64,000 nucleotides of DNA, taken from contig JBLHZY010000002.1 of the NCBI GenBank assembly GCA_047631555.1, positions 353,745-417,744 of the forward strand. Direction: 5' to 3'. A model generated the notes under the pieces. That model was given only the letters and a program-made list of their open reading frames with translations, ran no database searches and was not told the origin of the DNA. The translations under genes and the position numbers were made by a program. Position 1 is the first letter of the stretch; every line of letters starts with the position of its first letter. The stretch comes from Halocynthiibacter sp. Lineage in GTDB: Bacteria; Pseudomonadota; Alphaproteobacteria; Rhodobacterales; Rhodobacteraceae. Below are positions 2,589 through 53,232 of this stretch, one piece after another.

Positions 2589-2753
2589 GCCCATTCTCTC
2601 CGTCAGTCGCAGGCTGTTTCTGGCGCTACGTTTCGGCATTTTGGCGCAATGAAGTGAACAGGGCCTTAACCGAGATGAATGGGCGGCGGGGAATCATTTG
2701 ATCCTGTGGGCTGGGCTGTGCGAGCATGGGATATTATTAAAAAGGAGATTTTG

Positions 2754-8246: not shown

Positions 8247-8252
8247 GCCGGC

Positions 8253-10286
8253 ATGGTGCACCGCGCGCTCATAGGGCTGGTTATCGCGCTGTTTCTGGCG
8301 GCTTTTGGGCGCGATCAGGCGGATGATTGGATTGCGCGCACAGAACTTCCGGCTTTGGTGCAGCGTCATTCCCAAGAGGTGCTGGCGCGCGATGGCGCTT
8401 TGCTGCGCGCCTATCCGGTGGCGGATGGGCGCTGGCGGCTTCAGGGCGCCCTTTCGAGCACAGATAAGCGCTTTATCGAGATGTTGATCGCTTATGAGGA
8501 TAAGCGCTTTTATCGCCATCATGGTGTTGATCCGATTGCTTTGATGCGCGCCGTTGGGCAGGCTGTGCAGAGCGGTGAGATCGTTTCGGGCGGCTCGACA
8601 TTAACGATGCAAGTCGCGCGGCTTTTGGAGGAGGGGCCAACGGGATCGTGGCGCGGTAAACTGCGCCAAGCGCGGGTTGCTCTCGCTCTGGAACGCAAGC
8701 TGAGCAAAGCGGAAATCCTTGATCTCTATCTGGCGCGCGCGCCTTACGGGGGCAATATTGAAGGGCTGCGCGCCGCCTCGCTCGCTTGGTTCGCCAAAGA
8801 ACCTGCCCGCCTGACCCCGGCTCAAAGCGCGCTGCTTATTGCTCTGCCGCAATCCCCCGCCGCCCGCCGCCCAGATCGCCACCAAGAGGCAGCGAAATCC
8901 GCCCGCGATCGTGTGCTGTCCCGGCTTGCAAGGTCTGGCACTGTGTCGGCGGATGAAGCCCAAGCTGCCTTGCGCGATCCAATCCCAACTGCACGGTACA
9001 GCTTTCCAAAAAACGCCCCGCATTTGGCCGACCGTTTGCGCCGCGAAGCCCCCGATGCCCCCCGCATCCAAACAAGCATCGATGCCGCGCTTCAGGCCAA
9101 GGTCGAGGCGCTTGCTGCGAATGCTGCGCGCGCCTATCCCGATCTAACCGCAGCGCTGATCATTGCCGATCATCAAAGCGGTGCAATCCGCGCTTATGTT
9201 GGCTCGGCCGGCTATAGCGATGCACGCCTTGGCTATGTCGATATGGCAGCGGCGATCCGCTCGCCCGGCTCAACACTTAAGCCGCTGATCTATGGGCTCG
9301 CTTTTGATCAAGGCCTCGCTCACCCCGAAACCGTTATCGAGGATCGCCCGACCGCCTTTGGCAGCTATGCCCCGCAGAATTTCGATGGCCGTTTTCGTGG
9401 AACCATCGGCCTGCGAGAGGCTTTGATGCAATCGCTCAATATTCCCGCCGTAGCCCTTACCCAAGCCATTGGCCCTGAGCGGCTAATGGCAGGCCTGCGC
9501 CGCGCGGGCGTTGAGGCGCAATTGCCCGGGTCGGATGCGCCGGGCCTCGCGGTTGCGCTTGGCGGTGTTGGGATTTCATTGGAGGATATGGTGCAACTTT
9601 ATGCGGGCATCGCGCGCGGCGGCGAAAGCATTGCACTTTCCCCGCAACCGCAAACCTCAACCGGTTCAAGCGCGCGCATCCTCTCACAGGAATCCGCTTG
9701 GCATATTGGCAATATCCTCGCCGGAATTGCCCCGCCAGCGGGCGCCGCCCGTAATGGCCTTGCCTACAAAACAGGGACCTCTTATGGCCACAGAGATGCT
9801 TGGGCCATCGGCTTTGATGGGCAGCATGTTATCGGCGTTTGGCTTGGCCGCGCAGATGGCACGCCCGTTCCTGGGGTCTTTGGCGGCGAGCTTGCTGCGC
9901 CCGTGCTTTTTGACGCCTTTGCGCGCCTCAAACCAAAGACTGAGCCGCTCACGCCCCCACCACCAGCGACCCTGATCGCAAGCAACGCGATGCTTCCAAC
10001 CCCGCTTCAACATTTCCGCCCGCGTGATGCCCTTTTCGCGGCACCATTGGATGCGCCAAAGCTGGCCTTTCCGCCAAATGGCGCGATCCTTGCTGCTGCG
10101 CCTCGCTTGATTGCAAAAGTTGAAAAAGGCCGCCCGCCGTTTATTTGGCTGCTAAACGGGGCCGCTATCCAAAGCGCATCTTATGAGCGCCAAGCAGAAC
10201 TGCCTTGGCCGGGAAGCGGTTTTTCCACGCTGGCTGTGATCGATGCAGATGGTAGAGCAGCGCGCGCCCGATTTGAGCTGGAATAA
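8253..10286 (+). CDS. pbpC: Penicillin-binding protein 1C (bifunctional transglycosylase/transpeptidase).
   Basis: Glycosyltransferase-51 motifs are present (EDKRFYRHHGVDP, GGSTLTMQ). Transpeptidase motifs are SPGSTLKP (SxxK) and KTGTS. It starts 7 nt after the a2M stop. Confidence 0.9.
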   Translation: MVHRALIGLVIALFLAAFGRDQADDWIARTELPALVQRHSQEVLARDGALLRAYPVADGRWRLQGALSSTDKRFIEMLIAYEDKRFYRHHGVDPIALMRAVGQAVQSGEIVSGGSTLTMQVARLLEEGPTGSWRGKLRQARVALALERKLSKAEILDLYLARAPYGGNIEGLRAASLAWFAKEPARLTPAQSALLIALPQSPAARRPDRHQEAAKSARDRVLSRLARSGTVSADEAQAALRDPIPTARYSFPKNAPHLADRLRREAPDAPRIQTSIDAALQAKVEALAANAARAYPDLTAALIIADHQSGAIRAYVGSAGYSDARLGYVDMAAAIRSPGSTLKPLIYGLAFDQGLAHPETVIEDRPTAFGSYAPQNFDGRFRGTIGLREALMQSLNIPAVALTQAIGPERLMAGLRRAGVEAQLPGSDAPGLAVALGGVGISLEDMVQLYAGIARGGESIALSPQPQTSTGSSARILSQESAWHIGNILAGIAPPAGAARNGLAYKTGTSYGHRDAWAIGFDGQHVIGVWLGRADGTPVPGVFGGELAAPVLFDAFARLKPKTEPLTPPPPATLIASNAMLPTPLQHFRPRDALFAAPLDAPKLAFPPNGAILAAAPRLIAKVEKGRPPFIWLLNGAAIQSASYERQAELPWPGSGFSTLAVIDADGRAARARFELE

Positions 10287-23374: not shown

Positions 23375-24421
23375 TTACAGAGCGCCAAACCACTTGCGAT
23401 AAATCCGCGTATAGGTGCCATCTTCGCGCAATTTCAGCAGGCTTTGATTGATCGGCTCTGCCAAAGCGCTGCCCGAGGGCAAGGCGATCCCATAATTTTC
23501 GCGCAAGAAGATTGGCCCGACAAGCTGTGAGGCGGGGCCTTTGGTTGTATGGGCGTAATAGGCCAGGATCGGCGCATCAAAAACAACGGCGTCGAGCTCC
23601 AATTGCTCAAAGCTGCTCAGCATCATCTGTAAATCGCTAAAGGCGACAAAGCGCATATCGCGCGTTTCTAGGAAATTGGCGGCAGTTGAGCCTTCAATCG
23701 TTCCAACACGTTTGCCGTTGAGATCGTTCACCTCGTTTACCGAGGACTGGATCGCATTAACGGTCAAAACGGATGTGATCTTCGCAACGAAAATAGAGAC
23801 GAAGAAGAGCGAAGACACCACAAGGAAAACGCCAAAGAAACGCCCTGCTGCAGAGCGGGGCGCGCGTTCTTCAAAGCCGCCATTTACGATTAGGTTGAGC
23901 GCCCACCAAAAGGCGGGAAACATCGCCGATTTGGCCGGCAGATCGAAATAGGGCTGAGCTTTGCGCTCAAACCGCCACATCAGCATGCCGGCTGCGAGCA
24001 GGGCAACGAAGGCCGCGATGATGGCAAGGATCAGCTCGCCCGAAAAGATCACGGACCAGATCGAGCCAACGCTTCCCGTGGAATGGACCATGATCTGAAG
24101 GCCGCTCTCAAAGATTGGCTGCGAGAAATCCATCACTTGTTCGCGCTGGGATGTCACCGAAATATTCGCAACGGCCGCATCGACTTCGCCGCGCTCAACA
24201 AGGCCGAGCATATCAGAGAATTTTTCGACCCGAACCAAGCTGTATTCGCGGCCCAAATCCTTTGAAACGGCTTCCCAAAGATCGATGCTAAAGCCACGAT
24301 CGTTGCCGTCTTCAACAAGCGAAAACGGCGGGCGCGTGACTGTTGCGATGCGCAAATCTTGGGCAAAAAGCCCTGTTGCCCAGACGACAAGCGTCATTGT
24401 CAGTAGTAGCAAGCGTTTCAT
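23375..24421 (-). CDS. Periplasmic amino-acid-binding (SBP_bac_3-like) protein interrupted by a two-TM plus re-entrant pore module: a GluR0-type prokaryotic ligand-gated channel architecture.
   Basis: The order is signal peptide (MKRLLLLTMTLVVWATGLFA), then an S1-like lobe. This is followed by TM ILAIIAAFVALLAAGMLMW, a pore-like FPAFWWALNLIVNGGFEE and TM FFGVFLVVSSLFFVSIFVA. An S2-like lobe ends the protein (GKRVGTIEGSTAANFL...YGIALPSGS...W). The start is at ATG 24421. Confidence 0.7.
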   Translation of the reverse strand: MKRLLLLTMTLVVWATGLFAQDLRIATVTRPPFSLVEDGNDRGFSIDLWEAVSKDLGREYSLVRVEKFSDMLGLVERGEVDAAVANISVTSQREQVMDFSQPIFESGLQIMVHSTGSVGSIWSVIFSGELILAIIAAFVALLAAGMLMWRFERKAQPYFDLPAKSAMFPAFWWALNLIVNGGFEERAPRSAAGRFFGVFLVVSSLFFVSIFVAKITSVLTVNAIQSSVNEVNDLNGKRVGTIEGSTAANFLETRDMRFVAFSDLQMMLSSFEQLELDAVVFDAPILAYYAHTTKGPASQLVGPIFLRENYGIALPSGSALAEPINQSLLKLREDGTYTRIYRKWFGAL

Positions 24422-24513
24422 GTATCTTCCCCAGATTCGACCCTGTATCGCATGAAATCCCGCAGATTCACAATCAAGGAAACGCATGTGAAGCCTTGAA
24501 ACCGCGGCAAATC

Positions 24514-25614
24514 TTAGGCGCTTAGGGCGGAAAGCAAGGTCGCTGTTTCATAGTCGCGCAGCGCTGGGCGCACGACAGCATGATGGCGCGGGATAGCCGA
24601 AGGGGGCATCGCGCCGATCGGCGTGGTTGCCGCGAGTTCCGGCGCATTGGCCAGCCCGCCAACAAAAAGGCTTTCGCCCCAGGCGCCGCCCATATTGATG
24701 CATTCATGGGTATCCAGCAGGATATGATGATAGCGCATTGGCATCCGCCCGGCATTAAGTCGCGCGCCTTTGGAGGCGAGCAGATGACGCGCCTCAACCA
24801 GAACATCGCTTTCGCCAAACAGGTATTCCGCTTCGATCCCAGAGATCATCATTCGGTGATCTTGGGCGACGGTAATATCGTGATCGAGCCCAAAGTAGGG
24901 GGCGCGAAGCGTTATGGGCGCGAACTGTCCGGCCATGGGCACATCGCGCGTAATGATCCAGCGGATCGGGGCATAGGTTCCTGCCGCCGTGGCAACCATA
25001 TCGCCGCGCCGCAGCCGCTCTATCCGGCGCGCGCCAAGATCGGTTGCAATCAAAGTGCCTGCGCCAATGCCGGGCATAAGACCCACGGGTTCAATCGCAT
25101 CAGAGACGGCGAAAAGGCGGATTTCGGGATCAAAATAGCGCCGCATGCGATCGGTCGAAAGGCGGGCGATATCCGTTGCGGGAATGGGCGCTGGATTATC
25201 AAATTCAGTTTGTTTCAGGACCGCGTTATCAAGGTCTTCGATGCTCAACAGGCCCGAGCGATTTGGCGCGTCCCATGAATAGGTAATCCGCAGGCGCGCC
25301 TCGGCCGACGGCATCGGCATGGTGAGGCGGATATCAGAGCGATTTTCGCCTTGTTCAACCCGCACACAAAGCGCACCACCCGGCGCGAGGGACATATTCA
25401 GCGCGCGTTTCCAACCGATCTGATCGGCGAAATCGATCAGGGTGCGGCGCTCTTTTTGATCCGCTGAGGCACGCAGTTCAAGCACGAGGCTGCCGCGCGA
25501 CAAAAGCGTATTGGCCAGAGAAGCTTCGGTATTGGAATGAACGCGCGGCGCTTGGCCGAGCCCCTGCAAATTGAACGCAGGCGATAGGAAATCGTTGACC
25601 CCAATCCAGCTCAT
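24514..25614 (-). CDS. Hint (Hedgehog/intein, Hint_2-type) domain protein with an unknown N-terminal domain of about 190 aa. The nucleophilic Cys is absent.
   Basis: The C-terminal half aligns by eye with the Hint domain of the upstream gene (GTLIATDLG...GDMVAT...YAPIRWI...HHILLDTHECI..GESL). The position of Cys-1 reads GIGAGT. Confidence 0.8.
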   Translation of the reverse strand: MSWIGVNDFLSPAFNLQGLGQAPRVHSNTEASLANTLLSRGSLVLELRASADQKERRTLIDFADQIGWKRALNMSLAPGGALCVRVEQGENRSDIRLTMPMPSAEARLRITYSWDAPNRSGLLSIEDLDNAVLKQTEFDNPAPIPATDIARLSTDRMRRYFDPEIRLFAVSDAIEPVGLMPGIGAGTLIATDLGARRIERLRRGDMVATAAGTYAPIRWIITRDVPMAGQFAPITLRAPYFGLDHDITVAQDHRMMISGIEAEYLFGESDVLVEARHLLASKGARLNAGRMPMRYHHILLDTHECINMGGAWGESLFVGGLANAPELAATTPIGAMPPSAIPRHHAVVRPALRDYETATLLSALSA

Positions 25615-25650: not shown

Positions 25651-27264
25651 TTAGGCAACCATTTGTTCGCTAATGAGAATTTGCGCTTCAAAGGCTTTGA
25701 GCATCCTGCGTGCGGCGGGGCTATAACCGGCGCCGGTGTCTGGGTCCAGCTCGGGGAAAATGGTGCAAATTTCATCCAGCGTTTCGCGCTCAAACTGGTT
25801 CATAACGGCGGGTCCCGGCAGGAAGCTTTCTGTGGGAAGGCCTTCGGAATAGATCACTTGATGGCGATCAAACAGCAGATGCACATATTCAACTTCGCCG
25901 CCCTCAACGGGGCGAATGGTCAGATCGTTTACGAGGTCTTTCGCCGCCACCAGCACTTCGGCATCGCCAAACAGAAGATCGGCCATGTGATTGCGGATCA
26001 AAACGCGGTGCTGGGGAGAGAGCAGCAATTCGCGATGCCCCTCGCCAAGCGCGCCAGCCCGGATACGGATGGGCGCGTAATTGCCTTGCGCCGCGACGGT
26101 ACGCCGCCCGAGCCAGCGAACCGGTTGGGGCCCGTCGTCATGGGTCATCACCAGCGAGCCGGGCTCAAGGCTTTCAACCGGGCGTTCGCCGCTTGGCGTC
26201 ATAATCATTGTGCCAGCAACAAAGCAGGGGATCGTGTTGAGCGTTACAAAACCAACATCGGTATCGCCGGTCGAGCTTGCCACTTCATAGGTGAAGCTAA
26301 CCGCTTCTTCATCCGTATCGGTCGTTACATCGAATGTGCCGTCGGCCAGAAGGGTAACGGTTTGACCCGTTGCCACGGTAACGCTGTCGCCGACATTGAC
26401 CGCGACGCTGTTCACATGGGTGATCGTCAGTGTGCCGCCTGTGGCGTTGATATCGTTGGCCAGAACATCGAGGTTTTTGGTCGCGCCGATGAAAATATCG
26501 GAGTTGTCATCCATCGCAACAAGCGTCGTTTGAACCGAGTTGCCGGCGATCAAGAGAGAGGAGTCATAGCTGCTGTCGGCAACATCTGCGATGCCGATAC
26601 GGATCGAGTTTACCTCGCCACTGACAACGGGAATTGTCAGCGTCATGGTGATGGTGAACCCGTCCATCTCGGTGTTGTAATCATCATTCGTGTTGTCGAC
26701 GAAGAGATTGTAATTGTTCGTTGCGTTGATATTGCCAACGCTGGCGTCGCCAGTACCGACCGTCATCGGAACATGGGTCCCGTTGACCCAAACACCCACG
26801 ACATCGTTGTAAATGGAGGCGGCATATTCGGGATATTCTTCGGAGGAGAAGACGAATTGCATCGTCATCACGTCGCCCGTTGGGATGAAATCCACATCAA
26901 GCCAAGAGGCGTCATACGTGCTTGTGCCCGCGATGGCATTGAAGTTTGCGTTGTTATTGACACCAGAGGTATTGGTCGAGGTGTTCGTGCTTTGGTTGGA
27001 TTGCGCTGGCGACGGATTCCACCACGGGCCGCTGTTGCCGGCGGAATTGGTGAAGTCTTGCGCATAGCCCGTCGAGAGGATCACGCCGGTATCGCCGGGC
27101 GTTACACCGGGCGAAACCGTATCGCCATTGGAATAGACGCCAGAGCTGCGCGCGTCCCCAGTGTAGGACGCATTCACAACCGTTACGCCGTCGCCAAAGA
27201 TCGTCTGGGCCATAAGCATAGCCGACGCATTCGTGTTAATCGGAAGTTCCGATGCCGCAACCAT
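25651..27264 (-). CDS. Large Hint_2-domain protein with a choice-of-anchor-L-like N-terminal domain and cadherin/VCBS-like middle region, ending in a C-terminal Hint domain with Cys-1.
   Basis: N-terminal blocks are ASYTGD..SSGVYSNG, FVFSSEEYPEY, NDVVGVWVNG and IGIADVADSSYDSSLLI. The middle carries VLANDIN. The Hint domain starts at IPCFVAGTMIMTPSG and ends with HLLFDRHQVIYSEGLPTESF. The start is set at ATG 27264 behind GGAGG. Confidence 0.8.
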   Translation of the reverse strand: MVAASELPINTNASAMLMAQTIFGDGVTVVNASYTGDARSSGVYSNGDTVSPGVTPGDTGVILSTGYAQDFTNSAGNSGPWWNPSPAQSNQSTNTSTNTSGVNNNANFNAIAGTSTYDASWLDVDFIPTGDVMTMQFVFSSEEYPEYAASIYNDVVGVWVNGTHVPMTVGTGDASVGNINATNNYNLFVDNTNDDYNTEMDGFTITMTLTIPVVSGEVNSIRIGIADVADSSYDSSLLIAGNSVQTTLVAMDDNSDIFIGATKNLDVLANDINATGGTLTITHVNSVAVNVGDSVTVATGQTVTLLADGTFDVTTDTDEEAVSFTYEVASSTGDTDVGFVTLNTIPCFVAGTMIMTPSGERPVESLEPGSLVMTHDDGPQPVRWLGRRTVAAQGNYAPIRIRAGALGEGHRELLLSPQHRVLIRNHMADLLFGDAEVLVAAKDLVNDLTIRPVEGGEVEYVHLLFDRHQVIYSEGLPTESFLPGPAVMNQFERETLDEICTIFPELDPDTGAGYSPAARRMLKAFEAQILISEQMVA

Positions 27265-27572
27265 ACCCGCCTCCAGGTTCACTTTTTGGCAGGCGGATGG
27301 CGCAACTGTCCCGTGGCTTTTGCACGGAATTCTTGTTTATTTTGCCACTCGTGGTGCGGATCTGGTTTTTTTATGATCCGCGTGCCCTGCCTCAGAGCAT
27401 TATTGATTGCCGCCAAGCTGACACGAAAAAGTTGAAAAGTTAACAAGTTCTTACGATGCGACTGCTGCGACAGCATTTACCTGTCGCAAAAGCGCCACAG
27501 CGGGCTTGCGCCAAAGATTGCAGCAAGGCGCGGATGCGGGTAACTCTTTTGGCTAAAGTCCTGTTTTGAAAG

Positions 27573-43788: not shown

Positions 43789-44163
43789 TTAAGCCGGGGT
43801 TGGCTCTTCGCCGCCTTGGCCTACAGGGAGCCACATCTTTTCAAGCTGATAGAAATCGCGCACTTCGGGGCGGAACACATGAACGATAACATCGCCAGCA
43901 TCGAGCAAAACCCAATCGCCTTGGCCTTTGCCTTCGATCTTGGAAATGATGCCGAATTCCTGCTTGAGGCGCTCAGACATCTTTTCAGACAGCGCTGAAA
44001 CCTGCCGGGTTGAGCGACCCGTGCACAGAACCATATAGTCAGCCATTTCGGATTTGCCGCGCAGATCAATCGAAACGATGTCTTCTGCTTTGTCTTCATC
44101 CAAGGAAGCGAGAATGCGCGCGAGCAATTGTTCGGGCGTTGCGGGGGCCGGGGCTTGCTTCAT
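43789..44163 (-). CDS. rsfS: Ribosome silencing factor.
   Basis: 124 aa ([14 protein letters not shown]...[16 protein letters not shown]). It lies directly upstream of rlmH. Confidence 0.85.
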
Positions 44164-44371
44164 TGCAGCACCCGGGGCAGCGCTAGAATTGGCCGCCGTT
44201 GGTGATTGAGACAGGACATTGTCCTCCTTCGTGGCGCGCCGATTCCTCCCCGGCGCTGGGCATTTTTATAAAGTAGCACCTAAGGGGGCAAATCTCAATC
44301 GATGCAAGGCAAAGCGGGCGTAGTATGGCGCAGATTCCGCTGCGTAGCGACATTCGGCAACATAATCGCGT

Positions 44372-45691
44372 CTAATCCAGCGCTTTGTCTGCATTTTCTT
44401 CGAGCATGCGCACCTCGCGCTGGGGGAAGGGGATCGAAATATCGTTGGCCTTAAACGCATCCCAAAGCGCGAGATAAACAGCACCGCGCACGTTTGTGAG
44501 GCCGCCTGTTGGGTCAGTGATCCAAAAGCGCAGGATGTAATCGACCGAACTGTCGCCAAACCCAACGATGTGGCAAACGGTCGGGCGGGTATGCGACACC
44601 CGGCTGACGCCCTTTGCCGCTTCAACGGCGATTTTGCGCACCAGATGTGGATCATCGCCGTAAGCCGTGCCAAAGAAGATATCGAGGCGCACGTAATCAT
44701 TGGTATGGGACCAGTTGACCACTTGGTTGGTGATCAGATCCTCGTTCGGGATCAGGTATTCTTTGCCGTCGCGGGTAACGACCGAGGCGTAGCGCGCGCC
44801 AAGCGTATTGATCCAACCAAAGGTTTCCCCAAGCGAAATGACATCACCGGGTTTGATCGATTTATCCAGCAGGATGATCACACCAGAGACAAGGTTCGAG
44901 ACGACCTTTTGCAAGCCAAAACCAAGGCCAACACCAATCGCGCCCGATAGAACCGCCAAACCAGTGAGATCAAATCCGACCGCTTTGAGCCCGATAAAGA
45001 AGGCCGCGCCATAGAGCGTTATCTGCAGTACCTTAACGGCGAGCACCCGCATAGAGGGCGAAATCTCTTCGTTTTTGGATATCTTTGTGGTGGCGGATTG
45101 GGAGCCAACCCGCGCCAGTGTAAACAGAATTCCGGTAACGATCAGCGCTTTGAGAACGGCAAGCGCCGAGAGGCGGAAATCGCCAAATTCAACGGCGGCG
45201 CTATCCAGAAAGGCGGTCATCGCTTCGGCAAGGCCGAGATAATAGAGCGTTACATATACCCACAGGCCCCATGTCACAACGCGGCGCAAAAGGCTGTTGC
45301 GCACAAGGCGGGCGGCAAAGCTTACCATCAACCAAGCCAGAGCGATCGTTGCTACAAGGACGAGGATATAGCGGCGCGAGGGGAAGGGCGTTATCTGCGA
45401 AATGATGCCAACAGAGGCCCAGGCCAGGCCGACAAAAAGGATCAACTGCAGCCGCTTATGGACCACAAGCATCGCGCGCAACCTTGGCTTTGAAACCCCT
45501 TCAAGACCGCGCATCCAGTTATAGATTTTGGGCCCAATCCAGCGGCGCAACAGCCATGCCGTTATGATGATGACGCCCAAAATGATGAATTGCTGAAGGC
45601 GTGAGGGCAAAAACAGATTGGAAAACGCGCCCTCGATCTCGGCCCAAAGGGTAGCGAGCTGTTCAAGGAATGTGTTGAAAGCGTTCAGCAT
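44372..45691 (-). CDS. Mechanosensitive ion channel (MscS family).
   Basis: It has multiple N-terminal TM segments, then GLGFGLQKVVSNLVSGVIILLDKSIKPGDVI... and a beta-domain. The start is uncertain (45691, 45724 or 45793). Confidence 0.8.
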   Translation of the reverse strand: MLNAFNTFLEQLATLWAEIEGAFSNLFLPSRLQQFIILGVIIITAWLLRRWIGPKIYNWMRGLEGVSKPRLRAMLVVHKRLQLILFVGLAWASVGIISQITPFPSRRYILVLVATIALAWLMVSFAARLVRNSLLRRVVTWGLWVYVTLYYLGLAEAMTAFLDSAAVEFGDFRLSALAVLKALIVTGILFTLARVGSQSATTKISKNEEISPSMRVLAVKVLQITLYGAAFFIGLKAVGFDLTGLAVLSGAIGVGLGFGLQKVVSNLVSGVIILLDKSIKPGDVISLGETFGWINTLGARYASVVTRDGKEYLIPNEDLITNQVVNWSHTNDYVRLDIFFGTAYGDDPHLVRKIAVEAAKGVSRVSHTRPTVCHIVGFGDSSVDYILRFWITDPTGGLTNVRGAVYLALWDAFKANDISIPFPQREVRMLEENADKALD

Positions 45692-45832
45692 TTGCGCGGC
45701 CCAAATTAACCTTTTTGCCAGCATGGCACGGCCCCGTGTGCCCATGCAAGCCGGTGATTGCGGCGGCGTGATGCGCCAAACGCCCGAAATCACAAAAGTT
45801 TTTCATGCCTAAGGGATACTTCTAAAAATAGG

Positions 45833-45848
45833 TTTACCTTTAAGTAAA
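45833..45848. promoter_or_regulatory. Imperfect 16-bp palindrome TTTACCTTTAAGTAAA upstream of lipoprotein paralog 1 (candidate operator).
   Basis: It is homologous in position and sequence to the near-perfect palindrome upstream of paralog 2. It lies about 240 nt before the ATG in an AT-rich spacer. Confidence 0.35.
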
Positions 45849-46085
45849 TCTAACTGGCTCAAGTTTAGTGTATTGTGTTAACTAATAAGCGCTGAAATTC
45901 AAAATTGCCCATTGCTGCTGCGTTTTGAGCCAAGAAAATTTCGCATGTAAGGCTTCGCGCTGTTTTGCCGGGGAAGCCTATTTTACTCAGTATATTTTTT
46001 TAAAAAATCTGGGGCTAATGTATTGATTTTGATGTTTTAATTGGGGCGCGGCCGTTCTTTGCGGCCGTGCATGCTGGGGGAAGTT

Positions 46086-46862
46086 ATGAGAAAATCTCTA
46101 ATCAAAGCGCCCGTTGTGGCGCTCGGCGCAGCTTTGGCTGTGTCTGGCTGTTTTCATCACGGGACAAGCGTTGGCGGAGCATTTGACGCAAGCAAGAGCT
46201 TTGTCGAAACCTACGACGGCTATCGGCTGCTTACGAATGAGCCATTCGTTGTCGCGACAAACAAACCGACAGGCACCGTGAGCTATACAGGGGGCATCCT
46301 TGTTGAGCGGCAACCAAACGTGGCGCAAACCGAAAAAACGGGCCTAAGCGATATCGCTGTGCCGCCTGAGGTTGAATTTATTGTTGGGCAGCTGGTGGTT
46401 GATGTCGCCTTTGACGACAACTCCGCTACTCTCGCGCTTTCGAAGTTTCAGAGCGCCACGGCGCCTATTTCCATTTTTGTGAATCAGGCAAATGGAAACG
46501 CGACTGCTTTGGCTGCAATTACAGTTGATGATGTTACCATGGGGGACCCGCTTGATGGGACCCTTCAAGGGACTGGTTTTGTCGGCTCGGGCATTCAAGA
46601 CGAGGTTTATGTCAGCTCTAAAATAGTGGGCGAACTGACCAGCGGGAGCGGCGAAGCTCTTAAGACTTACTCGGTTGGGTATAGCTCTTCGCTGAATTTG
46701 CGTGGCACAGCAGGCAACGAATTTTTGCTTGGTGGCGCGTCCCTTAGCATTACCGAAACGCTGCCGGGCGACACTTTGGTTGCTCACGATCTGGTTCCGC
46801 TTCCCGGTCCGATCACCATAACTGAACGCTATTCAGGTATGGGTTACGCTGTTCAAAAGTAA
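46086..46862 (+). CDS. Lipoprotein, paralog 1 of 4. Unknown function; a TbpB/fHbp-like beta-barrel is suspected.
   Basis: It has a signal peptide plus lipobox (ALAVSGC). Family blocks are FDASKSF, PTGTVSYTGGILVE, VVDVAFDDN, SKFQSATAPISIF, LTSGSGEAL, FLLG and YSGMGYAVQK. The start is at ATG 46086 behind GGGGGAAG. Confidence 0.75.
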   Translation: MRKSLIKAPVVALGAALAVSGCFHHGTSVGGAFDASKSFVETYDGYRLLTNEPFVVATNKPTGTVSYTGGILVERQPNVAQTEKTGLSDIAVPPEVEFIVGQLVVDVAFDDNSATLALSKFQSATAPISIFVNQANGNATALAAITVDDVTMGDPLDGTLQGTGFVGSGIQDEVYVSSKIVGELTSGSGEALKTYSVGYSSSLNLRGTAGNEFLLGGASLSITETLPGDTLVAHDLVPLPGPITITERYSGMGYAVQK

Positions 46863-46870
46863 ATCGATGT

Positions 46871-46920
46871 AGGCTCACCAAGCGCGAGAAGTTTCTTGCG
46901 CTTGGCGGGCCTGACGTTTT
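46871..46920 (+). terminator. Rho-independent-type terminator after paralog 1.
   Basis: A long imperfect stem aggctcaccaagcgc / gcgcttggcgggcct is followed by gacgtttt. Confidence 0.6.
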
Positions 46921-47009
46921 GGAGCTGCGCATTCTATCCGCATGCGCGTTCCAGAACGCCTCGAATTTGCTCAAACCTGCGGTCCAACCACCGCGCCTCT
47001 GCGACAAAG

Positions 47010-47025
47010 TTTACCTAAAGGTAAA
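47010..47025. promoter_or_regulatory. 16-bp palindrome TTTACCTAAAGGTAAA (7-N2-7) upstream of paralog 2 (candidate operator).
   Basis: TTTACCT and AGGTAAA are exact reverse complements. The flanking sequence (..CTGG.., TGTGTTAA, GCTGCTGC.TTT) is also shared with the paralog-1 upstream region. Confidence 0.4.
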
Positions 47026-47255
47026 TTTACTGGCCTGCACTAACTTGAATGTGTTAATCTTCTTTGAGTCGGAAGCCAAATGCCTAAGCTGCTGCATTTA
47101 TTGGGTCTTTTGATTCCGACAAGAAGGATAGACAAGTTATTTGCTTTGACCTTTGACTGCGAATTTTCCCAATTTTTGCGTTTGGGGATTGAATTGAAAA
47201 CAAATTTTTGTTGGCGCCTTGGCTGGTTTTAAGGGGCGCACGAACGGGGGAAGAC

Positions 47256-48017
47256 ATGAGATATTCACTATTAAAAGCGCCCATTGCGGCGCTAAGCGCT
47301 ACTGCTTTGCTGTCTGGCTGTGTGCTGGGCAATTTTGATGCGAGCAAAAGCTTTGTTCAAAGCTATGATGGTTATCGTTTGCTGAGCGAAGAGCCCATCG
47401 TAGAATATTCGGCCAAACCTACTGGGTCCGTAAGTTACACGGGCGGCATTTTGGTCGAAAATCAGCCAACTGTTACGTTTGCAAAGCCTATTGGACTGGC
47501 AGGTGAGCCAGTTTTGATCGGTGTTGATTATATCGTTGCGAAAATGGATGTTGATGTTGCCTTTGATGACAACACCGCCGAATTTGAAGTGTCGAATTTT
47601 CAGCGCGTATCGGCGCCCATTTCCATTTTCACTGATCCAAACTCAGTCCCAAATGCCGCTGTCATCGGGCTTGAGGCTGATAACGTTGTTTTGGGCGATA
47701 AGTTCGACGGCAAGCTGTCAGGCTCAGGCGGCGTTTATGCGTACAAACCTACGGGTACAATTGTCAGCTCTGGCATGCAGGGCACGCTGACTACCGGAAG
47801 CGGCGAAAGCTTACAGTCATATGGGGCCTCATTGGGCGTCGAGTTATTATTGCGCGGCACTGTGGGCAGCGAATTTCTGCTGGGAGAGGCGAGTTTGAAC
47901 CTGCGTGGGACAGAAGGGTCCGTTGTGCCGAATGAGCAGCTCTCAATCGAGCTTCCGCCAGAGCTTCCTTCGCAGAACGAGCGTTATTACGGCGCGGGTT
48001 ACGCGGTTCGAAAGTAA
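47256..48017 (+). CDS. Lipoprotein, paralog 2 of 4.
   Basis: Lipobox ALLSGC is present. Family blocks are FDASKSF, PTGSVSYTGGILVE, YIVAKMDVDVAFDDN, SNFQRVSAPISIF, LTTGSGESL, FLLG and YYGAGYAVRK. The start is at ATG 47256 behind GGGGGAAG. Confidence 0.75.
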   Translation: MRYSLLKAPIAALSATALLSGCVLGNFDASKSFVQSYDGYRLLSEEPIVEYSAKPTGSVSYTGGILVENQPTVTFAKPIGLAGEPVLIGVDYIVAKMDVDVAFDDNTAEFEVSNFQRVSAPISIFTDPNSVPNAAVIGLEADNVVLGDKFDGKLSGSGGVYAYKPTGTIVSSGMQGTLTTGSGESLQSYGASLGVELLLRGTVGSEFLLGEASLNLRGTEGSVVPNEQLSIELPPELPSQNERYYGAGYAVRK

Positions 48018-48028
48018 CGCTCGAACAT

Positions 48029-48077
48029 GGGCCCGCTATTGCGCGAGGGCATTCTTGCGCGCGGTGGGCCTGTTTTG
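48029..48077 (+). terminator. Terminator after paralog 2.
   Basis: gggcccgc...gtgggcc arms enclose an inner gcgcg/cgcgc stem, then tgtttt. Confidence 0.6.
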
Positions 48078-48104
48078 ATCGCGAAAATTCAAGCCGCTGA
48101 AAAC

Positions 48105-48121
48105 AATTAATAAATCGCGCC
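48105..48121 (+). promoter_or_regulatory. Conserved AT-rich motif AATTAATAAATCGCGCC about 45 nt upstream of the paralog 3 start (candidate promoter or operator).
   Basis: It is nearly identical to the motif upstream of paralog 4 (one T/C difference). It is not present upstream of paralogs 1 and 2. Confidence 0.3.
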
Positions 48122-48164
48122 TGTACGGATTTCGACTGCGGCGCAGATGGAGATGGAGATGGTA

Positions 48165-48923
48165 ATGAAACAATCTATTTTGAAGGCCCCGCTTGTGGCG
48201 TTTGGTGCGGCAACTTTGCTGTCGGGCTGTGTTCTGGGCAGTTTTGATGCGAGCAAAAGCTTCTATGAAACCTATGATGGCATGCGCACGTTGGGCAACG
48301 AACCTCTAATTCTTGGAGCCGATAGGCCGACAGGCACAGTAAAGTATTCCGGCGGCATGCTCGTAGAGCAATTGCCAGCCGCCACACTTGCAAAGCCTGT
48401 AGGGCTTGCCGCGGATCCTGCCCCGGGCGACGTCAACTATATCGTTGCAAAATTGGATGTTGATGTTGCCTTTGATACCAACCTGGTTGATGTCGAGGCG
48501 ACGAATTTTCAGCGTGCAACGGCGCCAGTATCCATTTTCGGGTATTCAGGGCTTGGCGTGCAGTCTCCGGCGGCTGAACTCGCTGAAGGTGACGTCGTTT
48601 TAGGCGAGAAATTTGATGGCTCTATTTCCGGCACTGCTCAGATTTACGACGATGGGCTCAATGGCTTTAATGTAGACGGCACGGTTGTCGGTCAGCTGAC
48701 AACCGGAAGCGGCGAAAGCCTGAAGACCTACACCGGTCTTTTGCGCTCTGATCTGGTTTTGTATGGAACAGCGGGCGACACGTTCTTGCTTGGCAGCTCG
48801 ACGCTCGATCTTCGCGGCCAGAACGTTGTGACTAATGCGCAAACCTCGGGCGAGTTCCCGGCAGCGGCATTTGCCTCCGACGAACTTCTTGGCGGCACCG
48901 CATATGTCGCTCAAGTAAAATAA
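48165..48923 (+). CDS. Lipoprotein, paralog 3 of 4.
   Basis: Lipobox TLLSGC is present. Blocks are FDASKSF, PTGTVKYSGGMLVE, YIVAKLDVDVAFD, TNFQRATAPVSIF, LTTGSGESL, FLLG and GGTAYVAQVK. The start is set at the last of four in-frame ATGs (MKQSILKAP). Confidence 0.75.
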   Translation: MKQSILKAPLVAFGAATLLSGCVLGSFDASKSFYETYDGMRTLGNEPLILGADRPTGTVKYSGGMLVEQLPAATLAKPVGLAADPAPGDVNYIVAKLDVDVAFDTNLVDVEATNFQRATAPVSIFGYSGLGVQSPAAELAEGDVVLGEKFDGSISGTAQIYDDGLNGFNVDGTVVGQLTTGSGESLKTYTGLLRSDLVLYGTAGDTFLLGSSTLDLRGQNVVTNAQTSGEFPAAAFASDELLGGTAYVAQVK

Positions 48924-48931
48924 TCTTTGCG

Positions 48932-48978
48932 GGCCCGCCATTTAGCGCGCGCTTTGCGCATGGTGGGCCTGCTATTTT
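48932..48978 (+). terminator. Terminator after paralog 3.
   Basis: ggcccgccat / atggtgggcc arms are followed by tgctatttt. Confidence 0.6.
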
Positions 48979-49003
48979 GAGCGGCCTTTAGGGGCAAACG
49001 AGT

Positions 49004-49020
49004 AATTAATAAATTGCGCC
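49004..49020 (+). promoter_or_regulatory. Conserved motif AATTAATAAATTGCGCC about 40 nt upstream of the paralog 4 start.
   Basis: This is the same motif as at 48105-48121. Confidence 0.3.
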
Positions 49021-49058
49021 ACGACTGATTTTTATAAGGCGCACCAAAGGAGACTGTT

Positions 49059-49832
49059 ATGGAAAAGACATTATTGAAGGCGCCTGTTTTGGCGTTTGGC
49101 ACAGCGACATTGCTATCTGGTTGCGTCATTGGCAATTTCGATGCGGCCAAGAGTTTCGCTTCAAATGAGGAAGCATATCGCCTGCTTAGCAGCGCGCCAT
49201 TGGTTCAGGCCGCCGATATTCCGACGGGCTCGGTCAGCTATTCCGGCGGTATCCTTGTTGAAAGAGAGGCCCGCTCCAAAGGCGTTCTGAACACGGGGCT
49301 TGCAGCGGATCTTGAAAATCCCGACGTTCATTATATCGTTGCAAAGATGGATGTAGATGTTGCTTTCGATGACTCCACTACAGATTTTACGCTGTCGAAA
49401 TTTCAGCGCGCAACAGCGCCGGTTTCCATTTTCGATCTAGGCAGCGAGCCGAATGCCGAGGGGGATCTCGCGATTGATCCCAATGATATCGTCTTGGGCG
49501 AAGCTTTTAGCGGCACAGTCACAGCACAGGGCAGCGTGCTTGCAGATTTTTCCGGTGTGCTGGCGTACGCTTCTTCCTACGGATCGACGCTAACCACCGG
49601 GAGCGGCGCCACCCTTCAAGCGCATGAGGTGGATTTCAGTGCTGGGCTAAACCTGCGCAGCACGGGGGGCGAAAATTTCTTGCTTGGGCATGCCGGGCTA
49701 CAGATTCTAACTGAAGTTGCCATTTCGGACGAGCCATCGGGCGATCTTGAATCGACTGGAGATGCTGAACCGATTATCGTTCAGCTTCGCGAGGGGTATT
49801 CGGGCTCTGGTTACGCTGTTCAGACGGATTGA
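49059..49832 (+). CDS. Lipoprotein, paralog 4 of 4.
   Basis: Lipobox TLLSGC is present. Blocks are FDAAKSF, PTGSVSYSGGILVE, YIVAKMDVDVAFDD, SKFQRATAPVSIF, LTTGSGATL, FLLG and YSGSGYAVQTD. AAGGAG lies upstream of the ATG. Confidence 0.75.
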   Translation: MEKTLLKAPVLAFGTATLLSGCVIGNFDAAKSFASNEEAYRLLSSAPLVQAADIPTGSVSYSGGILVEREARSKGVLNTGLAADLENPDVHYIVAKMDVDVAFDDSTTDFTLSKFQRATAPVSIFDLGSEPNAEGDLAIDPNDIVLGEAFSGTVTAQGSVLADFSGVLAYASSYGSTLTTGSGATLQAHEVDFSAGLNLRSTGGENFLLGHAGLQILTEVAISDEPSGDLESTGDAEPIIVQLREGYSGSGYAVQTD

Positions 49833-49840
49833 TCCAAGAC

Positions 49841-49890
49841 AGGCCCGCTGCTTTGCGCGACTCACTTGCGAGTGGCGGGCCTGTGGTTTA
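49841..49890 (+). terminator. Terminator-like hairpin after paralog 4.
   Basis: aggcccgc / gcgggcct arms are present. The T-run (gtggttta) is weaker than in the other three copies. Confidence 0.5.
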
Positions 49891-50050
49891 TGGCTCTGCG
49901 TATGAAACACATCTTTGATATGGATGATCGTGCGCGTTTACCGTGGCGCTTTTTTGGCGCAACGCTGACAGTGCTTGCCCTGCAATAGGCCGGGCCCGTT
50001 TTCGCACGTCTACATACCTTCAAAATTCACATCATACCGGAGAGCGCAAC

Positions 50051-51457
50051 ATGACCGCCCCGAAGACCCTTTATGATAAAATCTGGGATGCCCATATCGC
50101 CGATGAGGCCGAAGATGGCACGACCCTGCTTTATATTGATCGCCACCTTGTTCACGAGGTGACATCCCCGCAAGCCTTTGAAGGCCTGCGTTTGGCGGGG
50201 CGCTCTGTGCGCGCGCCGGATAAAACGATCGCTGTGCCGGATCACAACGTGCCAACGACGCTTGATCGCGCTGAAGGCATCAAGAATGAAGAGAGCCGCA
50301 TTCAGGTTGATGCGCTGGATAAGAACGCCAAGGATTTCGGCATTCACTATTATCCCGTGTCCGACGTGCGCCAAGGCATCGTGCATATTGTTGGCCCCGA
50401 GCAGGGCTGGACGTTGCCCGGCATGACCGTTGTTTGCGGCGATAGCCACACAGCAACGCACGGCGCATTCGGTGCCCTCGCGCATGGTATCGGAACTTCC
50501 GAGGTCGAGCATGTTTTGGCAACGCAAACGTTGATCCAGAAGAAATCCAAGAACATGAAGGTTGAGATCACCGGCAAACTGATGCCCGGTGTCACGGCCA
50601 AGGATATCACCCTTGCGGTGATCGGCGAAACCGGCACAGCCGGCGGCACAGGCTATGTGATCGAATATACCGGCGAGGCGATCCGTGCGCTTTCGATGGA
50701 AGGCCGCATGACTGTTTGTAACATGGCGATTGAAGGCGGCGCGCGCGCTGGTCTGATCGCGCCGGATGAGACCACATATGAATATGTCAAAGGCCGCCCG
50801 CACGCCCCTAAGGGCGCGCAATGGGAAGCCGCTCTGACATGGTGGAAAACGCTCTTTAGCGATGAAGATGCGGTTTTTGATAAGGTCGTGACGCTCAAAG
50901 GCGAAGACATTGCGCCCGTGGTCACTTGGGGCACATCGCCTGAGGATGTTTTGCCGATCTCGGCGAATATCCCTGCGGCGTCTGATTTCAAGGGCGGCAA
51001 GGTTGATGCTGCGCAGCGCTCGCTTGATTACATGGGTCTTGAGCCCGGCAAGCCGCTTACCTCGATCGAAATCGATACGGTCTTTATTGGCTCCTGCACC
51101 AACGGGCGGATCGAGGATCTGCGCGCTGCGGCGGCGATCCTGAAGGGCAAGAAGATCAAAGAGGGCATGCGCGCGATGATCGTGCCCGGCTCGGGCCTTG
51201 TGCGTGCGCAGGCCGAAGAAGAGGGCCTCGCGGATATTTTCAAAGAGGCTGGCTTTGAATGGCGCCTTGCGGGCTGTTCGATGTGTCTTGCGATGAACCC
51301 GGATCAGCTTGCGCCGGGCGAGCGCTGTGCTGCGACCTCCAACCGCAACTTTGAAGGTCGTCAGGGGCGCGGTGGACGCACCCATTTGATGAGCCCCGCC
51401 ATGGCAGCTGCCGCCGCGATCACCGGTCATCTGACCGATGTTCGCGAGATGATGTAA
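50051..51457 (+). CDS. leuC: 3-isopropylmalate dehydratase large subunit.
   Basis: It starts [15 protein letters not shown] and carries VCGDSHT and [11 protein letters not shown] (Fe-S ligands). Confidence 0.95.
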
Positions 51458-52392: not shown

Positions 52393-53232
52393 GTGATTTC
52401 TCGGCTGGCAGGCGCAATTTTGCGCGCGATTTTTGTGGTGTTGCTGATTGCAACGCCCTCGCTGCTGTTGCCTGGGGTAACATCGGACACAACGCAGATC
52501 GTCTCGCTTGTTGCGATCTTTGCCGCCGCGCTGACCCTGTTTGAATACGCCTCTGTATATCCCGGCCTTGTTGAATTTCGCGACGCGCCGCCGTTTAACC
52601 GCATCCGCTTTGTCTCGCTCTTTCTGACGGTTTTCTTGCTGACAATGATCTCGCGCGGCATCTCCTCGCCAACAACCGCGACCCAGTTCATTACCGCGAT
52701 TGGCGCCCTTATTGGCCATGTCCTCGATTTCCCCTATTCACCTGTGCGCTTGATGGTTCTGATGCTGCCCGAAGGCACGCCAGAGAGCCAAGTTCTTATG
52801 GTGCGCACGGCGGCTGGGATGAGCTATCTGATCTCGCTTTTGTCGCTGGTGACATTCCTTATGGCGCTCAGAATGCAGAAATGGCCGACCCGCTCTGGAT
52901 CGTTCAATGTCTGGATTAACCTGCCGACCTTTGATCCCACTGCGGGCGGCGATGTGGTTGCGCGGCTTGAGCGGGATGCGCGCTTTAACATCGCGCTTGG
53001 ATTTCTTTTGCCCTTCCTGATCCCGGCTGTGCTAAAATCGGCCTCTGATCTGTTTGGATCGGTCACGATGGATAATTCGCAAACCCTGATTTGGACAATT
53101 GCTGCATGGGCCTTTCTTCCTGCTTCTCTGTTTATGCGCGGCATCGCGATGGGCAAGATCGCCGAGATGATCGCCTCAAAGCGCCGTCTTTCCTACGCGG
53201 CTTCAGAAGAGCATCCTTATCAGCCTGCTTGA
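52393..53232 (+). CDS. Hypothetical polytopic membrane protein.
   Basis: It has about 6 hydrophobic segments. The start is GTG 52393 with GAGGG upstream. I recognise no family. Confidence 0.55.
   Translation: MISRLAGAILRAIFVVLLIATPSLLLPGVTSDTTQIVSLVAIFAAALTLFEYASVYPGLVEFRDAPPFNRIRFVSLFLTVFLLTMISRGISSPTTATQFITAIGALIGHVLDFPYSPVRLMVLMLPEGTPESQVLMVRTAAGMSYLISLLSLVTFLMALRMQKWPTRSGSFNVWINLPTFDPTAGGDVVARLERDARFNIALGFLLPFLIPAVLKSASDLFGSVTMDNSQTLIWTIAAWAFLPASLFMRGIAMGKIAEMIASKRRLSYAASEEHPYQPA

Follow-up and report, generated by a model that had tools for sequence, protein, structure and literature searches.

We describe a tandem array of four lipoprotein genes in a 64,000-nucleotide stretch of a Halocynthiibacter sp. 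genome (Rhodobacteraceae; assembly GCA_047631555.1, contig JBLHZY010000002.1, positions 353,745 to 417,744), referred to here as the window, with coordinates counted from its first letter. The array consists of four consecutive open reading frames (ORFs) on the + strand which, read from the first possible start, span 46041-46862, 47208-48017, 48147-48923 and 49059-49832 and encode 273, 269, 258 and 257 amino acids (aa). The ATGs at 46086, 47256, 48165 and 49059 were taken as the probable starts because a ribosome-binding site, GGGGGAAG or GGAGA, precedes each of them, and the products are then 258, 253, 252 and 257 aa long. The genes are as follows.

46086-46862, + strand: lipoprotein paralog 1, 258 aa; open from TTG 46041; identical to P0003
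47256-48017, + strand: lipoprotein paralog 2, 253 aa; identical to P0001
48165-48923, + strand: lipoprotein paralog 3, 252 aa; open from ATG 48147; identical to P0002
49059-49832, + strand: lipoprotein paralog 4, 257 aa; the most divergent copy; P0006 is its C-terminal fragment

The paralogy of the four genes is far beyond chance. BLASTP between the copies gave 43%–48% identity with E-values of 1e-55 to 1e-77, identity over ungapped alignment columns was 40%–49%, and a BLASTP search for a fifth copy across the 64-kb window found none. All four begin with M(R/K)xSLLKAPxxALGAAxL(L/V)SGC, where the lipobox Cys is residue 22 and the residue at +2 is F in copy 1 and V in copies 2 to 4, never Asp. 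The signal peptide MRKSLIKAPVVALGAALAVSGC or its equivalent is present in all six family members found in this study, with G-C invariant at positions 21-22, and the positive region, hydrophobic region and lipobox [LVI][ASTVI][GAS]C of the lipoprotein (SPII/Lgt-LspA) criterion are all found in the sequences. The four products are thus predicted to be bacterial lipoproteins with a type II signal peptide. A same-strand array of diverged lipoprotein paralogs sharing a near-identical signal peptide and lipobox without Asp at +2 had been proposed in a first-pass annotation of this DNA, and both points hold, as do the conserved blocks listed there, all of which are found in the four copies (FDAxKSF, PTGxVxYxGGxLVE, YIVAKMDVDVAFD, FQ..APxSIF, LTxGSG, FLLG and GYAV). 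Its estimate that roughly half of the positions are conserved is fair for pairs of copies, but only 71 alignment columns are invariant across all four. The array is also lower in GC than its flanks, as had been remarked: coding GC in the four genes is 0.51-0.54 and GC at third codon positions (GC3) is 0.52-0.54, against a GC3 of 0.59-0.66 in the flanking genes.

The family has no counterpart in the profile libraries and no significant structural neighbor. Searches of Pfam and NCBIfam at E <= 1 returned only signal-peptide noise such as LptM and Cor, neither PHROGs nor PADLOC (the latter a library of anti-phage systems) matched any of the four proteins, and a profile search of all PDB sequences gave chance matches only (E > 0.5), in agreement with the earlier view that the family is uncharacterized. 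A word-indexed search of 5.8 billion clusters recovered the window's own copies and one further protein, P0004. An exhaustive HMMER scan of 1.84 billion representative proteins returned the same copies, part of copy 4, a further relative of full length (P0005) and one match judged spurious, P0007 (E 2.4e-4), which was discarded as a family member on reading its sequence, that of a 653-aa repeat protein. Across 185,579 GTDB species-representative genomes, the family occurs in one genome only, a Paracoccaceae metagenome-assembled genome (GCA_041156705.1; its locus is referred to as L001). Metagenome scans with a protein pattern and a 29-nt right-flank probe yielded no match, and the clade is absent from the scanned collection. 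The family as found therefore comprises six distinct proteins from three closely related genomes, and the literature search returned nothing specific on similar tandem lipoprotein families or on the organism and its habitat.

Comparison with the two other carriers, L001 and a short assembly contig (L002), delimits the array as a single variable unit.

45790-49842, + strand: variable cassette as a whole, bounded by sharp identity drops to close relatives

The window and L001 are 89.4% identical over 9.7 kb up to 45789 and 90.8% identical over 9.9 kb from 49843 onward. Between these breakpoints L001 carries one family gene, encoding P0004, in place of the four, and the remaining similarity is limited to patchy matches of 65%–73%. 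L002, with flanks 91% and 94% identical to the window, likewise has one family gene, encoding P0005; its right breakpoint lies at 49797, within the 3′ end of gene 4, beyond which the flank is common to both at 94%. The sequence upstream of the L002 gene is similar to that of copy 1 and the sequence downstream to that of copy 4; in L001 the upstream sequence is similar to that of copy 2. More distant relatives, in which the flanks are 68%–79% identical, have no family member in the slot. The comparison of copy number and synteny proposed in the first-pass annotation thus found a copy number that is not fixed (four in the window, one each in L001 and L002, none in the distant relatives), and the MscS-leuC junction is, to judge from these alignments, a recurrent gene-turnover site.

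The divergence of the family genes differs sharply from that of their surroundings. All 15 pairs of the six genes are about equally distant, with 40%–51% aa identity, a nonsynonymous divergence (dN) of 0.43-0.62 and a synonymous divergence (dS) of 1.5 to >3, which is saturated. Between the window and L001, the neighboring MscS, leuC, leuD and rsfS have a dS of 0.20-0.57 and 94%–99% aa identity. The overall dN/dS of the family is 0.19-0.41. Recent gene conversion among the copies is ruled out, as pS is near saturation in every gene segment, conserved blocks included, and rapid evolution of true orthologs after speciation is disfavored, since the window copies and those of L001 and L002 are saturated relative to one another in dS and dN alike. 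These distances indicate that the copies long predate the divergence of their host genomes and that the single copies in L001 and L002 have no ortholog of matching age among the four. Since the six members are equidistant with saturated dS and the surrounding genes are 94%–99% identical, we infer cassette exchange by recombination; the simplest account would be a cassette whose old allelic lineages persist and which relatives exchange, or retain differentially, at one fixed slot. Such a pattern is typical of loci under diversifying selection. With three loci sampled, a locally raised mutation rate or separate acquisitions are also possible sources of the divergence. Nine independent contigs of the window organism are 99.96%–100% identical to the window, and population microdiversity is uninformative because these contigs are clonal.

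Some further details of the slot were noted. Positions 1-930 of L002 align with 43846-46127 of the window with the whole MscS gene (44372-45793) missing, so that rsfS is directly followed by the upstream region of the lipoprotein gene, and MscS is thus not a fixed left boundary of the variable slot. At the same place, L015 (Candidatus Halocynthiibacter alkanivorans) has a TauE gene at 5146-5889 and L016, from another lineage, has a glyoxalase-family gene at 5545-5940.

The mature copy 1 was modeled with AlphaFold2 in a second run from the six-sequence alignment, reaching a predicted local distance difference test (pLDDT) score of 79.9 and a predicted template-modeling score (pTM) of 0.78, with four of the five models at 78-80. 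A first run, with the signal peptide included and five sequences, was poor (pLDDT 47) and had the same topology. In the good model a disordered tether (residues 1-12 after the Cys) is followed by an amphipathic helix (13-27) formed by the FDAxKSFxxxYxxYRLL block, a linker and eight long antiparallel strands of 12-18 residues, and the predicted fold class is clear, an up-and-down 8-stranded barrel. The turns T1-T3, of 2-4 residues, are at the pole of the barrel where both ends of the chain are found. The other pole bears three loops modeled with low confidence, L1 (20 aa), L2 (24 aa) and L4 (16-21 aa, with indels); L3 (TxGSGExL) is short (6 residues) and conserved. Variation follows these elements closely. 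Mean pairwise identity is 0.73 in beta1, 0.71 in beta2, 0.83 in T1 and 0.76 in L3, and falls to 0.27 in L1, 0.27 in L2 and 0.10 in L4; pN/pS is 0.23-0.40 in the conserved elements (beta1, beta2-T1-beta3 and L3), 0.51-0.64 in the remaining strand segments (beta4-b5, beta6-b7 and beta8) and 0.70-0.84 in the long loops. The earlier suggestion of a conserved scaffold with the variable segments in loops is thus borne out by identity and pN/pS element by element, on a strand map that is itself predicted.

Structure searches with this model, as the first-pass annotation had recommended, led to no specific known family: Foldseek against PDB and BFVD gave no match at E <= 1e-3. The top PDB match was PsbO (E 9.5e-3, TM-scores 0.32/0.37) and the second an unrelated match with low TM-score. 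The C-terminal barrel of NHBA came third with a weak match (E 0.08, TM 0.29/0.44), and YceI-type proteins (1y0g, E 0.29, TM 0.23/0.29; TT1927b, E 0.54), avidins and the OmpA transmembrane domain were found lower in the list. The matches of the first model, led by OmpA, Ail and OmpX, were treated as unreliable because that model was poor. A beta-barrel of the TbpB/fHbp type had been suspected from the spacing of the blocks. A beta-barrel is indeed predicted, but the TbpB/fHbp assignment fails by sequence: no TbpB-like Pfam model matched at E <= 1, the profile search of PDB sequences found no such protein, and hhalign with an fHbp query aligned the lipobox alone, with a probability of 1.2%. By fold, the NHBA match is a weak hint, and none of the TbpB, fHbp and HpuA chains, all of them in the library, is in the PDB Foldseek top 50.

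Eight strands, turns of 2-4 residues and loops of 20, 24, 6 and 16-21 residues make up an outer-membrane-protein-like topology, which is not diagnostic alone. A lipid-anchored integral outer-membrane barrel of the OmpX/OmpA/Opa kind, with long hypervariable extracellular loops and short periplasmic turns, would account for the short turns at the end that bears both termini and the long loops at the other. It would also fit the top Foldseek matches of the first model, the phage-encoded outer-membrane barrels at the top of the viral-library matches (TM up to 0.53) and the amphipathic helix ahead of an 8-stranded barrel, which recalls PagP. We nevertheless consider it very unlikely. The proteins have a lipobox instead of a signal peptidase I site, none has a Pfam match to an outer-membrane protein, and neither a C-terminal aromatic beta-signal nor an aromatic-rich lipid-facing surface was found in the six members, whose C-termini are polar without an aromatic residue (...GYAVQK, ...AVRK, ...AQVK, ...VQTD, ...AAKE and ...VQAD). 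Aromatic residues make up 7.2%–8.7% of the six proteins, with no Trp, against ~17% in OmpX. The hydrophobic strand face carries many invariant Gly and Ala residues together with Ser and conserved Asp/Glu, has a mean Kyte-Doolittle value of ~0.7-2.4, and is if anything better conserved than the other face (0.54 vs 0.46, not significant). A Gly/Ala-rich, partly acidic and modestly hydrophobic face fits a packed interior better than a lipid-facing belt.

Among known systems, the Slam-dependent lipoproteins of the type 11 secretion system (T11SS), namely TbpB, LbpB, fHbp, HpuA and NHBA, have, like this family, a lipobox signal peptide and antigenic or allelic diversity, and their C-terminal 8-stranded barrel (TbpBBD or lipoprotein C domain), with its variable, embellished loops, is comparable to the barrel predicted here. 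They differ in having an N-terminal handle, pedestal or effector domain; here strand 1 is preceded by only ~40 residues, which make up the tether, the ~15-residue helix and a linker, no such domain is present and the strands are longer, at 12-16 residues. Their DUF560 translocon is usually adjacent, often with a TonB-dependent receptor; among the genes annotated in the 64-kb window there is no TonB-dependent receptor, DUF560/Slam protein or ABC partner, in line with the earlier remark that no partner gene lies nearby. Neisseria Opa and enterobacterial OmpX/Ail/OmpA resemble the family in having eight long antiparallel strands joined by short turns on one side of the barrel and by long loops on the opposite side, and Opa also in being multi-copy with hypervariable loops, but these proteins have no lipid anchor and do have a C-terminal aromatic beta-signal and aromatic girdles. 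Blc and YceI are small 8-stranded barrels, often outer-membrane lipoproteins or periplasmic, to which the fold matches are weak; they are widely conserved and usually single-copy, in contrast to a clade-restricted, hypervariable family with ~230 mature residues and long loops. As a locus, the closest likeness is to hypervariable replacement loci such as tbpB/fHbp variants and surface-protein cassettes within housekeeping flanks, which have sharp identity breakpoints, alleles far older than the host genomes and changes in copy number. The difference is that the present locus, sampled three times, belongs to a marine alphaproteobacterium that lives free or in biofilms and is not known to face immune pressure from a host. 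In general terms, barrel lipoproteins from variable, multi-copy families are familiar.

The sequences around each gene suggest how the copies may be expressed. The spacers before genes 1 to 4, measured to the probable starts, are 292, 393, 147 and 135 bp long with a GC of 0.39, 0.48, 0.54 and 0.51. Each gene was expected to have an AT-rich spacer of its own; all four have one of 135-393 bp, but against a window GC of 0.573 the AT-richness is clear in the first two alone. A full upstream region of ~290-390 bp is shared by copies 1 and 2 with the L001 and L002 genes, and copies 3 and 4 retain the proximal block only, ~65 bp with an AT-rich -10-like element, a GCGCC...GGCGC repeat and the ribosome-binding site. 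The features outside the coding regions are as follows.

45833-45848, no strand assigned: near-palindrome TTTACCTTTAAGTAAA, candidate operator, ~250 bp upstream of gene 1
46015-46085, + strand: gene 1 promoter-proximal block with AT-rich TTGATTTTGATGTTTTAAT, GC-rich inverted repeat and Shine-Dalgarno GGGGGAAG; aligned with the upstream regions of gene 2, L001 and L002
46866-46920, + strand: terminator-like hairpin of gene 1, -35.9 kcal/mol, z-score -6.9; then TTTT
47010-47025, no strand assigned: perfect palindrome TTTACCTAAAGGTAAA, ~246 bp upstream of gene 2
47188-47255, + strand: gene 2 promoter-proximal block with GGCGCC...GGCGC inverted repeat and Shine-Dalgarno; closest to the L001 upstream region
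48027-48078, + strand: terminator-like hairpin of gene 2, -30.7 kcal/mol, z-score -3.3
48095-48164, + strand: gene 3 short 5′ block with AATTAATAAAT, GCGCC...GGCGC and GGAGATGG; repeat families D9 and D11
48929-48979, + strand: terminator-like hairpin of gene 3, -33.2 kcal/mol, z-score -3.2
48995-49058, + strand: gene 4 short 5′ block with AATTAATAAAT, GCGCC...GGCGC and AGGAGAC
49839-49889, + strand: terminator-like hairpin of gene 4, -31.9 kcal/mol, z-score -3.9; in the conserved right flank, adjoining a small ORF upstream of leuC

The 16-bp palindrome recurs at a corresponding position ahead of copies 1 and 2 and the L002 gene, and with one change ahead of the L001 gene. Its pattern has 4 matches in the window (2 sites, both strands) where 0.13 would be expected, and the exact pattern is absent from L015 and L016, which lack the family. 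To our knowledge, it has no convincing match among the CtrA, FNR, Fur, Irr and LexA boxes. The regulation of copies 3 and 4 may differ from that of copies 1 and 2. GC-rich inverted repeats, seen by eye in the aligned upstream regions, stand between the AT-rich block and the ribosome-binding site at 46045-46068, 47212-47238, 48117-48145 and 49016-49044, as GCGGCCG...CGGCCG in copy 1 and GCGCC...GGCGC in the other copies; such a repeat could form a stem-loop in the 5′ untranslated region or serve as a second operator.

Each gene is followed by a terminator hairpin of its own, as had been reported from the sequence, with energies of -31 to -36 kcal/mol that lie well below those of shuffled controls (z -3.2 to -6.9) and a short T run after each. 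The gene 4 hairpin is kept in L001 and L002. A simple terminator scan missed the hairpins of genes 1 to 3 and caught only the 3′ part of that of gene 4, and an Rfam search of 45000-50500 had no match. Hairpins of the GGCCCGC...GYGGGCC type occur within the window after genes 2 to 4 only, and are therefore part of the duplicated unit; the same confinement rules out an origin from a genome-wide element similar to repetitive extragenic palindromes. With these hairpins and the conserved 5′ blocks, it is likely that each of the four genes is transcribed independently, and the earlier description of the genes as autonomous transcription units becomes plausible.

Taken together, the locus suggests a variable cell-envelope protein. 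Our preferred interpretation, which we regard as having about an even chance of being right, is a cassette that is restricted to one lineage, varies in copy number and encodes barrel lipoproteins anchored in the outer membrane, their scaffold conserved and their distal loops variable. The proteins would be exported by Sec, lipidated and sorted by Lol to the outer membrane, where the mature form, a tether of ~10 residues, a conserved amphipathic helix and an elongated 8-stranded antiparallel barrel, would hang as a soluble barrel from its lipid anchor. The conserved beta1-beta3 and TxGSGE loop would let the base make a common structural or partner contact, and the three long loops, opposite the N-terminal anchor and nearly free to vary, would provide the recognition surface. 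The cell would keep several independently expressed variants, the cassette would be exchanged by recombination between relatives with crossovers in the flanks or in the conserved 3′ end, and the diversity would be maintained by diversifying selection from phages, grazers or competitors. Selection by such outside agents would favor exposure at the cell surface or envelope, and surface exposure is the weakest step of the proposed mechanism. The first-pass annotation had thought of a surface-ligand or antigen family, and the hypervariable-cassette pattern strengthens that idea and does not prove it.

Several points weigh against this interpretation. The high pN/pS of the loops cannot tell diversifying selection from relaxed constraint because dS is saturated. 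The structural model comes from an alignment of six sequences, and the inward-pointing strand face and the position of the helix were deduced from sequence only. The best matches in the viral library (BFVD) are phage-encoded outer-membrane barrels (E 0.022, TM 0.44/0.53). Recombination and balancing selection are read from three loci, since the clade is represented in the databases by only three genomes and all samples of the window organism are clonal. A sigma-70 consensus scan of the spacers on the + strand found no promoter, which counts against the genes as autonomous transcription units. Finally, the Lol sorting rules were established for E. coli and not for Alphaproteobacteria.

Periplasm-facing outer-membrane lipoproteins that carry a small hydrophobic ligand in the barrel, in the manner of Blc and YceI, would make the loops merely unconstrained. 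The predicted 8-stranded barrel with its conserved Gly/Ala-rich hydrophobic face agrees with such a role, as do a polyisoprenoid-binding protein, YceI and avidins among the weak Foldseek matches; moreover, most Gram-negative lipoproteins face the periplasm, and saturation blocks a proof of positive selection. We still find a ligand carrier unlikely, given the lack of any Pfam lipocalin or YceI match, a fold match that is not significant with TM-scores of only 0.23-0.33, and a replacement with saturated dS amid flanks with a dS of 0.2-0.57 and in 0-4 copies, which is unexpected for a housekeeping function. Hypervariability and changing copy number would suit equally an orphan array of immunity lipoproteins against periplasm-acting competitor toxins (type VI effectors, contact-dependent inhibition or bacteriocins), the copies covering toxin variants, as tandem diverged periplasmic or lipoprotein immunity genes and strain-variable islands are typical of such systems. 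A review of polymorphic toxin systems is available (PMC3482391). Yet no toxin, Rhs/VgrG, CdiA, type VI secretion or mobile-element gene is adjacent or among the annotated ORFs of the 64-kb window, PADLOC, though aimed at anti-phage systems, gave no match, and the family is absent from all other lineages, whereas immunity families usually travel with their toxins; we judge this to be improbable to a high degree.

Equally doubtful to us are young, weakly constrained and lineage-specific genes, possibly of horizontal origin, that were duplicated by chance and are drifting with little function and no diversifying selection. The orphan distribution, a GC3 below that of the flanks, loops that evolve almost neutrally and the unrelated genes that fill the slot in other genera would all be expected of such genes. 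What speaks against drift is that all six members keep intact frames, lipoboxes, Shine-Dalgarno sequences and terminators despite saturated dS, that pN/pS of 0.23-0.40 in the core and an overall dN/dS of 0.19-0.41 mean purifying selection, and that the upstream palindrome is kept in three species. A more specific version of the cassette interpretation concerns secretion. Marine Rhodobacteraceae carry a distinct T11SS (Slam-like) translocon cluster with few recognizable cargo, cluster 3, for which 0.21 cargo per translocon are predicted and whose cargo possibly falls below similarity thresholds (2025 survey, PMC12282271). Because the surveyed translocons have so few recognizable cargo (PMC12282271), the four genes could encode barrel-only surface lipoproteins that are unlinked cargo of the cluster 3 T11SS/Slam-like systems of marine Rhodobacteraceae, their three hypervariable loops forming a variable interface for phages, grazers or ligands and their diversity arising by cassette replacement and tandem amplification; we consider this quite unlikely.

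If the cassette interpretation is true, the locus would be a compact, free-living marine example of a pattern best known from pathogens: a lipid-anchored barrel, conserved in its scaffold and hypervariable in its loops, is encoded at a chromosomal hot spot of replacement and amplified to several variants that are expressed independently. It would imply that biotic agents (phages, predators or competitors) select strongly on the envelope of Rhodobacteraceae that form biofilms, and the proteins would be candidates for the cargo still missing for the Slam-like secretion systems of these bacteria. What is already added is a new protein family that has no Pfam model and whose fold is predicted with confidence, and a clear case of allele ages far above genome divergence, the cassette replacement being its most interesting feature.

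The remainder of the window is ordinary chromosome, with genes for a thiolase, serA, RlmN, RNase R, rlmH, rsfS, MscS, leuCD, leuB and gap. Between the gene 4 hairpin and leuC lies a 32-codon ORF (49890-49988, + strand) with no Leu run and no Rfam match, whose core is conserved at the DNA level in L001 and L002 and partly in L015 and L016 upstream of leuC; it may be a leader peptide or an upstream ORF for leuCD. Downstream of leuD, a gene at 52393-53232 (+ strand) encodes a predicted membrane protein of 279 aa with no Pfam match, and at this position L001, L015 and L016 have a gene of 270-279 aa, also with no Pfam match. Two adjacent genes with Hint_2 domains are found at 24514-25614 and 25651-27282 (both - strand), the larger also with a bacterial Ig-like domain, and 23375-24487 (- strand) encodes a prokaryotic glutamate-receptor-like channel with a solute-binding domain (SBP_bac_3) and ligand-gated ion channel domains (Lig_chan). 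Bacterial alpha-2-macroglobulin and PBP1C form a known periplasmic defense-and-repair gene pair, and 2679-10286 (+ strand) encodes an alpha-2-macroglobulin (1855 aa, with an N-terminal PAN domain match) followed directly by a PBP1C-type penicillin-binding protein.

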